The notes beneath the pieces are model-generated. The model worked only from the letters and a program-made list of their open reading frames with translations. It searched no databases and was not told the origin of the DNA. Of a DNA stretch of 64,000 nt, positions 51,034 to 53,613 are shown in pieces. A program made the position numbers and the translations under genes. Within the stretch, counting starts at the first letter, position 1. Each line of letters opens with the position of its first letter. The DNA comes from Nannocystales bacterium (GTDB lineage: Bacteria > Myxococcota_A > Polyangia > Nannocystales > Nannocystaceae): the NCBI GenBank assembly GCA_050633305.1, contig JBOEGF010000019.1:160001-224000 (forward strand), given 5' to 3'.

Positions 51034-53613
51034 CTAGCGAGCGATTGCGATGTACACCCGCGGGCTCTCGGTCGCGGACACCCACGCCAGGTCCTTCTTG
51101 GCCGAGCCACCAAAGTTACCGACGTGCAGGTCGAACTGACTCCACGCTTCGTCGGCGAAGATGTCTTGGGGGATCGCTCCGAAGTCGAAGGTTCCGTCAC
51201 CCAATGATAGGCCGACGTAGACACGGTTGATAGCGCCGTCGCGAAGGTTCAGGATGAGGTCGGCGCCGTCATTGCCACTGACGTCAGAGAGGTGGGCCTC
51301 GAGGTCGGAGGGTCCGTCCTCGAGTACGAAGGGCTCACTCCAACCGGGGAGGGGCGTAAGGCCAGAGTTGCCTCCTCGTGCAACCTTGATGTGCGCCGTG
51401 CCGTCCGTTGTCTTCACCCAAACCAGGTCGTCGGCACCGTCGATGTCGATATCGCCGGCCAAGGTTTGATAGCCATCGTTCCAGCCTCCATCCGGTGCTG
51501 CCCCGAGGACGGGGGTCCCAGCGTGTGGTTCGAAGACATTGCTCAGCTGGACAAGTTCCGCGGGACCGCGCCGTGTTACCAAGTAAACTTGATTGGTCGC
51601 GCTGCCCTCGGGGTCGAGCAGTCGGTTCCACAACACGTCGGGCGAACCGTCGCCATTGAAGTCACCCACGAAGTCGCCAAGATAGTTGGGGGAATCGGAG
51701 CCGTGGCCCGGGTCGTCGAGGTCGTAGTAGATCTGATAGTAGTCCGCGATGTTCAGATGACCAGAACCAAGGGAGAGGTTCGACCGCGTGGCGAAGCCCG
51801 GGTTGTATTCACGACCGAACGCGAGGATGGGCTCCACCATCCCGTCTCCATCGAGATCCATCAGGTGAAAAGGGTGGTTGTTGGGTAGCGTGCTTCCGAT
51901 TCTCCCCGACTGGAGCGGCTGGTAGGCGATCGACTCCTCGTCTGTGTCCGTACCTCCGCCGGAGAGGCCAACGTAGAAGGCATTGAGTCGGCCCGTGAGC
52001 GTCGGATGGGGGCCGGCGTTGTAGTTCCAGACGAGGTCCGCGTCGCCGTCGCCGTCGACGTCTCCCGCACGAAGGTTGTAGGGACTCCAGGTCGCAGGCC
52101 CGTCCTCTCCGTCGAATTCGGACAGCACGCCGCGAGAAAGGGTGCCGTCTTCGGACCCGTGCAGGACGGCGATGCGGTTGTCATCGCCGCGGTGGTTGAA
52201 GATCAGGTCGTCATAGCCGTCGCCATCGCTGTCGGCGACGAGAACCTCGGCCACCGTCCCCATTTCGAGCTCGAAGCTCTGCGCATCAAGTGGTTCGAAG
52301 ACCCCCGGGTTGGCCTGTTGTGCCTCGCAGGTCTTGACCGTGTACTCGGTCGTCTCCGAGACCGCGGCGATGCTGTTGTCGCCGAGGTTCTTGAACGTGT
52401 ACTGCAGCGGCACTGCCGTGGAGAGGGAGGCCTCGTTGGTGAAGTAGGCCGACCAGTCGCCGGATCGAATCACGCTCAGGGCATCTGCGGCGTCGCCTCC
52501 GAGGGTGGTGAGGACAATGGTCGACTCCGAGAGAATCGACTTGTGCTTGCTCGACAATGACCCCGAAACGCCCCCGGCGATCGTGTTGTACGACGCCTGC
52601 AGCGCGGCGCGAATCTCAGACTCGCTCGCGGTCGACGTCAGCGTGAAGGTCATCATGCGGCCATAGACCGCATTCGAGACGTACACGGGAAGGTTGTCGG
52701 GGCCGATGCGGCCAGCCTGCTCCAACGCTTCGAGGTCTTCGACGGTGAAGTCGTCGGCGAAGAACGACTCCGGGCCCGATCCAGGGGGCTCGACCACGAC
52801 GGTAAACATGCGCTGCGTGAACTGGACCGCCACGGTGTTGGTCGACGCATTCTGGTCGATGGACCCCGAGGCCGAGGCCTTGAACCCCAGGTATCGCCCG
52901 GAGACCCCGGCAGACAGCGCGAACTGTTTCTCGGAGTGATAGGTCTGCATTTCGAAGCTGATGGACGACGGGGTGTCGAGGTCGTTGCGCGAGGCGTTGC
53001 CTACGAGACTTCCGATGGCCGCCGCGACTTCGGCCTGGTTGGGCGCGACCTCGCGGAAGTTCTCGCCGACCGGGCTGGCGATATCCGGGATCGAGACCCG
53101 GATCGGTGCGCGCTTCGTGACGGTGAGCGGCAGGACGTCGCCGATGCTGATGCCATCACGATGCGTTCGCCCTTGGATGAACGAGCCGGGATAGATCACG
53201 TCACGGCTGGGGTCGGACAGAACGATCGCCCCCGGATTGGAGGCCATGGAGTACGGCAGCTCGGTGCACTCGTAGCTGACGTCGCCCAGGACCTCGACCT
53301 CCCCCTCTTCGTTGATCTCCGTGACACCCTCGACGGTTTCGACGGTTTCGACGGGCTCGGCCTCGGGGAGGGGCAGGGGCTCCTGTGCGGCCAGCGGAGG
53401 CGAGAACTCCTCCCACGTGGGGAGTTCCTGAAGGTAGACCGCAACGTCCTCAGACTCCGGTCCGCCGCTGGCGTCGGGGTCGGGACCGGGGTCGGGGTCG
53501 GTATCGGTGCCGAGATCGACGGCAGCGTCGTCGCCGCATCCAAGGGGCAGAGTCACACAGCCCATCACAAGGACGAGACCGGAGCATAGTTTGAGATCGG
53601 AGGAGAGAGCCAC
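51034..53613 (-). CDS. Cholesterol-dependent cytolysin-like (thiol-activated cytolysin domain) lipoprotein with FG-GAP beta-propeller
   Basis: PLGC lipobox. CDC core VIYPGSFIQG, RAPIRVSI, FTQRMFTV, PVYVSNAVYGRM, LGGDA, VPLQYT. Seven DxxGDGxxDL-like repeats follow. Confidence 0.85.
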   Translation of the reverse strand: MALSSDLKLCSGLVLVMGCVTLPLGCGDDAAVDLGTDTDPDPGPDPDASGGPESEDVAVYLQELPTWEEFSPPLAAQEPLPLPEAEPVETVETVEGVTEINEEGEVEVLGDVSYECTELPYSMASNPGAIVLSDPSRDVIYPGSFIQGRTHRDGISIGDVLPLTVTKRAPIRVSIPDIASPVGENFREVAPNQAEVAAAIGSLVGNASRNDLDTPSSISFEMQTYHSEKQFALSAGVSGRYLGFKASASGSIDQNASTNTVAVQFTQRMFTVVVEPPGSGPESFFADDFTVEDLEALEQAGRIGPDNLPVYVSNAVYGRMMTFTLTSTASESEIRAALQASYNTIAGGVSGSLSSKHKSILSESTIVLTTLGGDAADALSVIRSGDWSAYFTNEASLSTAVPLQYTFKNLGDNSIAAVSETTEYTVKTCEAQQANPGVFEPLDAQSFELEMGTVAEVLVADSDGDGYDDLIFNHRGDDNRIAVLHGSEDGTLSRGVLSEFDGEDGPATWSPYNLRAGDVDGDGDADLVWNYNAGPHPTLTGRLNAFYVGLSGGGTDTDEESIAYQPLQSGRIGSTLPNNHPFHLMDLDGDGMVEPILAFGREYNPGFATRSNLSLGSGHLNIADYYQIYYDLDDPGHGSDSPNYLGDFVGDFNGDGSPDVLWNRLLDPEGSATNQVYLVTRRGPAELVQLSNVFEPHAGTPVLGAAPDGGWNDGYQTLAGDIDIDGADDLVWVKTTDGTAHIKVARGGNSGLTPLPGWSEPFVLEDGPSDLEAHLSDVSGNDGADLILNLRDGAINRVYVGLSLGDGTFDFGAIPQDIFADEAWSQFDLHVGNFGGSAKKDLAWVSATESPRVYIAIAR

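Follow-up and report, generated by a model that had tools for sequence, protein, structure and literature searches.

A cytolysin-like probable lipoprotein with a seven-bladed FG-GAP propeller in a Nannocystales genome and its linkage to a sigma factor and a kinase

We examined a 64,000-nt stretch of DNA from a Nannocystales bacterium (contig JBOEGF010000019.1, positions 160,001 to 224,000; called the window here, with window numbering used throughout) for the gene at 51034-53613, an open reading frame (ORF) on the minus strand that starts with GTG at 53613 and encodes a protein of 859 amino acids (aa). The plus-strand frame at the same position contains stops and was ruled out. Based on its sequence and predicted structure, the protein belongs to the family of proteins that resemble cholesterol-dependent cytolysins (CDCs), the CDC-like proteins (CDCLs) as defined in PMC7527733, and is neither a classical CDC nor a member of a pair of the EaCDCL or BfCDCL type; its C-terminal half is a seven-bladed FG-GAP propeller. 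Two aspects of this propeller CDCL are new: in most carriers it occurs without a small subunit detectable by sequence search, and its gene is linked to genes for an ECF43-type extracytoplasmic function (ECF) sigma factor and a kinase with tetratricopeptide repeats (TPRs). We propose that the protein is an inducible, single-component, glycan-aimed CDC-like pore former that would act without a small subunit, a proposal that we hold with about as much confidence as doubt.

Domain architecture and distribution

A Pfam search placed PF01289 on aa 122-426 (E 2e-28; 99.5 bits against a cut-off of 25) and also matched the FG-GAP repeats, phmmer aligned aa 122-429 with anthrolysin O and perfringolysin O (PFO) at an E of about 1e-17, and every one of the 28 matches in a PDB sequence search, over approximately aa 116-431, was a cytolysin or CDCL. 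None of the host genome's four CDCLs has a matching family in NCBIfam. The initial annotation, made from sequence, had described a CDC core at aa 110-430 with its motifs in order and without an undecapeptide or domain 4 (D4). All of these motifs are present in the translation in the same order, and neither ECTG nor WxWW occurs there, the propeller standing in the place of a CDC-type D4. The core is confirmed, but its fold begins earlier, at aa 55. This is seen in an AlphaFold2 model built from 120 sequences (mean pLDDT 81.5, pTM 0.62), in which aa 1-54 are disordered and aa 55-433 superpose on domains 1-3 (D1-D3) of pneumolysin with a Z of 27.4 and a root-mean-square deviation (rmsd) of 3.2 A over 334 residues, with both helix bundles modelled. 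Comparison of the core with classical CDCs gave Z values of 23-27, and with the EaCDCL chains 18.8-21.4; Foldseek agrees with these fold assignments.

Homologue statistics refer to the best 120 of 388 matches found among 8000 scored candidates. Invariant in all 120 are Y317-G318-R319, the diglycine G372-G373 that precedes the alpha-beta loop, M269, L397, F220, C116 and C429. The F/Y-F/Y-Xn-YGR motif is represented by M269-F270 and Y317-G318-R319, with Met at the first position in every homologue; by the account in PMC7527733 this position is aromatic in just 62% of CDCLs. M269 and L397 occupy the positions of the F230-F351 stack of PFO (phmmer alignment; PMC7527733 numbering, partly hand-counted). 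Transmembrane hairpin 1 aligns with that of PFO without gaps and hairpin 2 is four residues longer than its PFO counterpart, and the beta-periodic hydropathy moments of the four hairpin strands (family mean) are 1.25, 1.37, 1.93 and 1.77, compared with a core median of 0.60. Residues 245-252 of helix bundle 1 are modelled at low confidence.

In the model, antiparallel D2 strands (112-125 and 420-433) carry C116 and C429 in register, and the two probably form a cross-strand disulfide. The other CDCLs of the host genome also have the pair, as do several CDCLs from the environment shown in Fig. S2 of PMC7527733; PFO and the Bacteroides and Elizabethkingia proteins do not have it. EaCDCL and BfCDCL are cleaved by protease after T-K or T-R in the activation loop (PMC11169675); the beta-tongue-equivalent loop of the host protein has no such site, there being no Lys or Arg in aa 27-136, and a T-K or T-R is found in the equivalent loop of 7 of the 120 homologues; proteases of other specificity may still cut there. 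Conservation of the core is far above that of the propeller. On sequence and model, the core looks pore-competent and closer to the CDCs than the studied CDCLs are. A homodimer prediction for aa 55-433 scored 0.00 and was given no weight either way.

The seven FG-GAP repeats counted in the initial annotation correspond to loops that begin at aa 461, 518, 586, 651, 721, 777 and 833, one per blade in the model. Each of the seven blades is four-stranded with an acidic 1-2 loop, as in PVL/AAL2-type propellers, and the ring is closed by the N-terminal strand. Structure comparison of aa 438-836 with fungal N-acetylglucosamine lectins gave a Z of 25.2 for both PVL and PAL and 24.9 for AAL2; the Streptomyces lectin UmbA4 scored 20.7 and generic WD40-type propellers 18-19. 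A profile of 50 propellers matched UmbA4 with an E of 2e-31 and PVL and AAL2 with 1e-18 to 1e-21 (PVL 1e-21), while integrins were reached at about 1e-6. The propeller had earlier been described as lectin- or integrin-like; these comparisons of sequence profile and model support a closer resemblance to lectins than to integrins. AAL2 binds N-acetylglucosamine in a pocket that uses Asn, Gly-Gly-Trp and His from the segment connecting the blades (PMC4483166). The linker Trp is found across the family at positions 509 (120/120), 575 (108/120), 711 (116/120) and 824 (120/120); the host protein keeps W509, W711 and W824 and has Thr at 575. The propeller likely has a glycan ligand, and UmbA4 too directs a toxin to a glycan on a surface (PMC13274773).

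The lipobox claimed earlier would end at Cys26, a column that is Cys in 115 of 120 homologues, but the box itself, PLGC, is non-canonical; it was judged by a pattern test, and C19 is a second possible lipidation site.

PF01289 and FG-GAP occur together in all of the best 120 homologues, one of which, P0059, bears the name of the cultured Rhodohalobacter mucosus. Among the 150 best representatives at 50% identity, 46 have a full-length core and a propeller, 35 a core without propeller and 51 a propeller alone. From a genome scan 80 of 101 loci were kept, 46 of them with at least 2 kb of flank on each side, and a propeller match was found in 76 of the 80. About nine phylum labels are found on the carrier records (Bacteroidota, Balneolota, Rhodothermota, Gemmatimonadota, Calditrichota, Deinococcota, Chloroflexota, Krumholzibacteria and Myxococcota), the majority of carriers being labelled with one of the first six. 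In the host family PF01289 is present in 18 of 72 genomes, and the propeller-type long match in two, the host and G031 (locus L005, a Nannocystaceae record), with open frames of 861 and 875 aa and about 100 bits. The propeller architecture is therefore not a myxobacterial speciality. In a quick tree of 119 cores the host protein lies inside the propeller clade, apart from the three other CDCLs of its genome. Some distant cores also bear propellers and some close ones bear other tails, indicating that the C-terminal domain has been swapped often. The core tree and the sigma tree described below are quick trees with long branches, from which no donor or direction of transfer is claimed.

Linkage to an ECF sigma factor and a kinase

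A gene divergent from the propeller gene, and less than 200 bp from it, encodes a sigma factor of TIGR02999 (189 bits; cut-off 126), a family that we take to match ECF43 on the strength of a QTTA-like motif. This sigma factor, the kinase-TPR gene beside it and the promoter-like motif treated below had been passed over in the earlier reading. The sigma-2.2 motif is ATTA in the host sigma factor and QTTA or NTTA in most linked sigma factors. The kinase has a Gly loop, AAIK, HLDLK, DFG, one transmembrane (TM) segment and TPRs.

Clustering of 1951 neighbouring ORFs yielded two large recurrent groups, the kinase-TPR proteins and the ECF sigma factors. With the two proteins of the window as queries, the sigma factor was found at 29 of the 80 loci, the kinase at 30 and both at 27, in varied orientation. 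Adjacency to a TIGR02999 sigma gene was observed in 25 of 50 carrier genomes, whereas 0.70 would be expected from the per-genome counts of such genes, and in 10 of the 16 genomes with just one or two of them; kinship inflates this number, yet six phylum labels are represented. The 11-Mb host genome itself has two TIGR02999 sigma factors, and the one linked to the propeller gene groups with sigma factors of Gemmatimonadota. A contig of run X1 agrees with the window over 51034-57015, apart from 72 differences, and carries other sequence beyond both ends, and contigs of X2, a separate study, start and stop at the same points. No RNA data set was listed as a holder. These shared boundaries in two studies indicate that the three genes behave as one block. 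CDC-like genes with other C-terminal domains also stand beside TIGR02999 sigma genes (L111 and L097; L138 and L130), so that the regulatory link reaches past the propeller form.

A two-part motif with a 19-base spacer was read by eye from the upstream regions of a training set; its copy in the window is TGAGG-N19-GCTT, which ends 8 nt before the GTG of the propeller gene. With a spacer of 19 the motif occurs in 31 of 68 upstream regions, compared with 0-5 for other spacers and 2.3 for shuffles. Among 30 held-out CDC-like genes, the strict form of the window was found upstream of three (0.02 in shuffles) and TGAGG-N19-GCY upstream of six (0.4 in shuffles, maximum 2). In three groups the first element varies in step with the recognition helix of sigma-4 in the linked sigma factor, these groups also being clades and hence no proof, and the Gemmatimonadota group of the host sigma factor shares the TGAGG element. 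No sigma-70 promoter was found at the propeller gene. The motif is probably the cognate promoter of the linked sigma factor. A genome-wide scan for TGAGG-N-GCTT gave no excess at spacer 19 (83 against 42-96), and for this reason a regulon could not be drawn.

Small subunits and alternative explanations

The CDC-like toxins of Bacteroidota were presented in the initial annotation as large/small pairs. We found no core-only small-subunit gene in the window and no intact one in the flanks of the 80 loci. The search was extended to the genomes behind 50 of these loci, an author-selected set of metagenome-assembled genomes (MAGs) of unstated completeness in which relatives are not independent. None of their 95 PF01289 matches (63 within known loci and 32 fetched separately) is an intact small subunit: the 32 have tails of 110 aa or more, bar one truncated by a contig end, and of 123 core-complete ORFs none stops with a tail of less than 100 aa, four short-tailed ones running off the locus. 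Loci L057 and L081, tagged 'S' in the core tree, proved to be contig ends and not small subunits. A second CDC-like gene is present at 12 of the 80 loci, each copy being large, broken or cut by the locus end, and no MACPF gene was found in any of the five genomes tested. The paired model thus fits the propeller form poorly.

The host genome nevertheless does contain a small CDCL subunit, so that the earlier statement that no small partner is visible holds for the window but not for the genome. Its four PF01289 genes are the propeller gene, an adjacent large and small pair on contig C10, and a single on contig C50. The C10 pair (783166-787553; large subunit about 575-630 aa, small subunit about 425 aa and stopping at the core) is a myxobacterial two-component CDCL. 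It lies behind a 383-aa lipoprotein gene and beside a kinase-TPR gene, surrounded by what are presumably mur/mraY cell-wall genes, and adjacent large/small pairs recur in several genera of the host family. The C50 gene (3311-5050) encodes a 579-aa CDCL lipoprotein with a C-terminal domain of approximately 140 aa and is the top PF01289 match of the host genome; similar top-scoring singles are found in other genomes of the host genus.

We envisage the following mechanism for the propeller CDCL. An outside cue would be sensed by the TPR domain and activate the kinase, which would phosphorylate the sigma factor on the threonine of ATTA, and the sigma factor would then open the TGAGG-N19-GCTT promoter. 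The lipoprotein would be exported and displayed on the surface or on vesicles by its acidic tether, and the propeller would use up to three inter-blade pockets, each with a Trp, to bind a surface glycan. Assembly of monomers would proceed by way of the core sheet, as it does in CDCs, and the two helix bundles would refold to hairpins to give a large beta-barrel. As targets, grazing protists or other microbial eukaryotes on the one hand and unrelated bacteria on the other have about even odds, with prey killing by the host myxobacterium rated lower. Defence against protists is possible by analogy with Xanthomonas EcfK/PknS, a pair that drives amoeba resistance based on type VI secretion (the T6SS) and in which PknS has the same layout of N-terminal-extension kinase, one TM segment and TPRs (PMC13147305). 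The lack of a recurrent immunity gene fits a non-kin target, but E. anophelis has none either. A bolder form of the proposal, that a three-gene cassette of many phyla uses a TPR kinase to sense a grazer and an ECF43 sigma factor to release a lectin-aimed giant-pore toxin against eukaryotic surface glycans, seems to us rather doubtful. It would, if true, amount to a bacterial lectin-plus-perforin defence, with a self-sufficient CDCL standing between the cholesterol-binding CDCs and the complement-like two-component CDCLs.

Several observations weigh against an inducible, self-sufficient pore former. A seven-bladed propeller is approximately 45 A wide and 30-35 A thick, which is tight in a ring. 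Pore sizes from PMC11952106 leave an arc of 25-34 A per subunit in 30- to 42-mers, so edge-on or staggered packing, arcs, or shedding of the propeller would be needed. The two CDCL large subunits that have been studied show no activity on their own (PMC11169675). The self-assembly residues of PFO are matched only in part, W165 being replaced by Ala, the F230-F351 stack by M269-L397 and F318 by Ile. In the propeller, linker Trp is present in just three of the seven linkers, the other four lacking it, and the pocket His of AAL2 (five residues after Trp) is absent, with Tyr/Phe at +3/+4 instead. Ten of the 50 carrier genomes have no TIGR02999 sigma factor. The relaxed promoter motif is not enriched in the 450 bp upstream of 27 other TIGR02999 loci (3/27 against 3.2 in shuffles), three loci beside CDC-like genes having been left out of this test, and a weight matrix found one of 32 held-out sites. 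As regards partners, the carrier genomes are MAGs and a very divergent partner could escape PF01289, the second CDC-like genes near 12 of the loci include large ones, and P0262, a 385-aa core-only protein of the wider clade, ends 13 aa after the core. P0262 is a singleton on a 1.5-kb contig, and a metagenome scan with it returned two loci, both full propeller forms.

A first alternative is that the protein is an orphan large subunit, whose propeller anchors and then recruits a small subunit in trans from the C10 operon, one pore-builder thereby serving several interchangeable heads. The host genome does have one small subunit to three large CDCLs, known large subunits work in this manner (PMC11169675), a single bulky propeller per ring would avoid crowding, and P0262 may be the small subunit of the wider clade. 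However, the C10 small subunit is 25% identical to the core of the propeller protein, belongs to a separate clade, is encoded on another contig and shares no promoter motif with it. No small subunit is seen in the sole other carrier of the host family (G031, 71% complete), nor was an intact one found in the 50-genome search. We consider recruitment in trans unlikely.

A heteromer of similar-sized large CDCLs with differing C-terminal domains, as in the 'similar-sized pairs' described for Bacteroidota (PMC11169675), would account for the second large or broken genes in the flanks and for the 26 of 50 genomes with two or more PF01289 matches. In the other 24, however, the propeller gene is the sole match, the neighbouring CDC-like genes are spread over several clades, and none is adjacent in the window; we regard this arrangement as quite improbable. 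We have similarly strong reservations about a role without lysis, in which the protein would be a surface lipoprotein that adheres or captures glycans and its CDC core would serve as a stalk or go no further than a prepore. Such a role would be compatible with the 51 of 150 representatives that have the propeller without a core, many of them giant repeat proteins, with the loss of some PFO self-assembly residues, and with the control of unrelated functions by ECF43 sigma factors in other species (PMC13147305). Against it stand the invariant YGR and GG, hairpins that are amphipathic, conserved and as long as those of CDCs, and a core whose conservation far exceeds that of the propeller. A lineage-specific myxobacterial predation toxin, as first proposed, is very unlikely: the second Nannocystaceae carrier (G031, also G072 and L005) belongs to the host family and close homologues reach 54-76% identity, but just 2 of 72 family genomes carry the gene, carriers are mostly non-myxobacterial, and the linked sigma factor groups with those of Gemmatimonadota.

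The single-component reading can be set against known systems. The protein shares with the CDCL family (Evans et al. 2020, PMC7527733) the PF01289 core with YGR and GG, the missing undecapeptide, a variable C-terminal domain and probably the lipoprotein signal, which is of the SpII type in most members, and CDCL cores of Basidiobolus, Streptomyces and Deinococcus in Fig. S2 of that paper have motifs in common with the propeller clade. No FG-GAP repeats are seen among the Fig. S2 CDCLs (16 in the figure, of which two of three parts were covered), and the words 'propeller' and 'FG-GAP' are absent from the main text; propeller members may be among its about 300 proteins. Like the two-component EaCDCL and BfCDCL (PMC11169675, PMC11952106) it is a CDCL and probable lipoprotein with a non-CDC receptor domain; unlike them it has no adjacent small subunit or T-K/T-R site, no recurrent immunity-like neighbour was found for it, its propeller of 426 aa replaces a D4 of about 150 aa, and its structural match to EaCDCL is below that to CDCs. 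With the classical CDCs pneumolysin and PFO it shares a full D1-D3 from aa 55, a long D2, equal hairpin length and a single gene; it differs in having no D4 sandwich or undecapeptide, in being a probable lipoprotein, in the D2 Cys pair, and in Met/Leu for F230/F351. PVL, PAL, AAL2 and UmbA4 are the top fold and profile matches of its propeller, with linker Trp and acidic FG-GAP loops, although UmbA4 has six blades and belongs to a particle of several proteins whereas the host propeller is seven-bladed. The regulatory genes resemble the ECF43 pairs EcfK/PknS of X. citri and EcfP/PknT of V. parahaemolyticus in the QTTA-like motif and the adjacent kinase with TM segment and TPRs (PMC13147305); the output here is a single CDC-like gene and not T6SS, and a term search of PMC13147305 gave no link to cytolysins.

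Neither the propeller form nor the ECF link is described in the main texts of the three CDCL papers, in the supplements of PMC11169675, or in an open literature search that left subscription journals mostly outside. Databases label some members 'thiol-activated cytolysin/VCBS repeat protein', and the architecture is annotated yet apparently unstudied. Single-gene CDCLs are the commonest form (821 of 1578 genomes) and were set aside in the survey of PMC11169675. In the CDCL papers, the CDCLs studied are the paired ones of gut and insect Bacteroidota, and a receptor is reported for none. A swap of the C-terminal domain is expected of CDCLs, and the value of the present family lies less in this than in a partner-less, widespread, separately regulated cassette. 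The arrangement suggests that environmental bacteria have in it an inducible weapon made of a single protein. The family offers a tractable test of two questions, whether a lone CDCL can make a pore and whether the receptor of a CDCL can be a glycan. The ECF43/kinase link adds a one-gene output and a candidate promoter to a signalling class with two studied members, and offers a route to the inducing cue.

Feature coordinates and neighbouring genes

Table 1. Features of the propeller CDCL locus in window numbering.
Feature	Coordinates	Strand	Basis
CDC-like probable lipoprotein of 859 aa, C-terminal seven-bladed FG-GAP propeller	51034..53613	-	ORF, Pfam, phmmer, model, structure comparison
Probable lipoprotein signal peptide, aa 1-26, Cys26	53536..53613	-	Cys column 115/120; lipobox-like pattern in 97/119 homologues
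Acidic Pro/Asp-rich disordered tether, aa 27-54	53452..53535	-	pLDDT < 50; 9 D/E, no K/R
CDC core D1-D3, aa 55-433	52315..53451	-	Z 27.4, rmsd 3.2, 334 residues aligned with pneumolysin 4-357
Acidic beta-hairpin region, aa 72-115, where CDCs have the beta-tongue and CDCLs the activation loop	53269..53400	-	model strands
Helix bundle 1 / transmembrane hairpin 1, about aa 226-262	52828..52938	-	ungapped against PFO; alternating hydropathy
M269-F270, first half of F/Y-F/Y-Xn-YGR motif (Met replaces first aromatic)	52804..52809	-	M 120/120, Y/F 120/120
Y317-G318-R319 sensor motif	52657..52665	-	invariant 120/120
Helix bundle 2 / transmembrane hairpin 2, about aa 328-364	52522..52632	-	helices 331-346 and 355-363; alternating hydropathy
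G372-G373 diglycine hinge	52495..52500	-	invariant 120/120
C116 and C429, probable cross-strand disulfide in D2	52327..53268	-	both invariant; antiparallel register in model
Seven-bladed FG-GAP/VCBS propeller, aa 434-859; linker Trp W509, W711, W824	51037..52314	-	model, profile, structure comparison
Candidate ECF promoter TGAGG-N19-GCTT	53622..53649	-	ends 8 nt before GTG; spacing to GTG equal in L005
TIGR02999 ECF sigma factor, ECF43-like, ATTA at QTTA phospho-Thr site	53807..54421	+	TTG start inferred from AGGAGG site; ORF called from 53789
Hanks-type Ser/Thr kinase with C-terminal TPRs and a single transmembrane segment	54408..57020	+	HLD replaces HRD; start inferred
Dispersed repeat of about 160 bp abutting the stop codon; terminator-like hairpin 50914-50896 (minus)	50875..51034	.	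six copies elsewhere

The repeat at 50875-51034 has six near-full copies of about 86% identity elsewhere in the genome, and several X1 contigs also match it; its position at the left edge may help set the boundary of the three-gene block. Terminator-like hairpins in this region showed no excess over shuffles.

Beyond the repeat lies a single-copy ORF of lower GC content (0.61) at 49399-50829 on the plus strand, which encodes a 476-aa lipoprotein-like protein. It has no Pfam or NCBIfam match, and the Atlas lead, to Myxococcota hypothetical proteins, was below 0.9. It is not one of the recurrent genes that form the largest clusters of neighbours, and so was not counted as an immunity protein; no neighbour besides the sigma factor and the kinase is widely recurrent in this analysis, in which BcdI, the immunity lipoprotein co-encoded in the Bf system, was not used as a query. 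A different lipoprotein gene, encoding approximately 690 aa, lies directly beside the propeller CDCL gene on the same strand at six Gemmatimonadota loci (L041, L047, L050, L051, L071 and L077), upstream in five, and its product is a possible accessory or co-regulated surface protein.

Some minor observations concern the wider family. CDC-like genes broken by stops or frameshifts, through decay or assembly error, were found at L018, L032, L033, L046, L047, L052, L074 and L097. Locus L053 comes from a 7.9-Mb genome labelled Enterobacteriaceae, and its CDCL groups with a Myxococcota one, so that the bin is probably mislabelled. The propeller is also found on distantly related CDCL cores (L104, L107 and L110) and, repeated many times, within proteins of 2000-7000 aa (P0140 and similar). 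The CDCL of the fungus Basidiobolus has the N-terminal and pre-YGR motifs of the propeller clade in Fig. S2 of PMC7527733, which provides a lead for transfer between bacteria and fungi.

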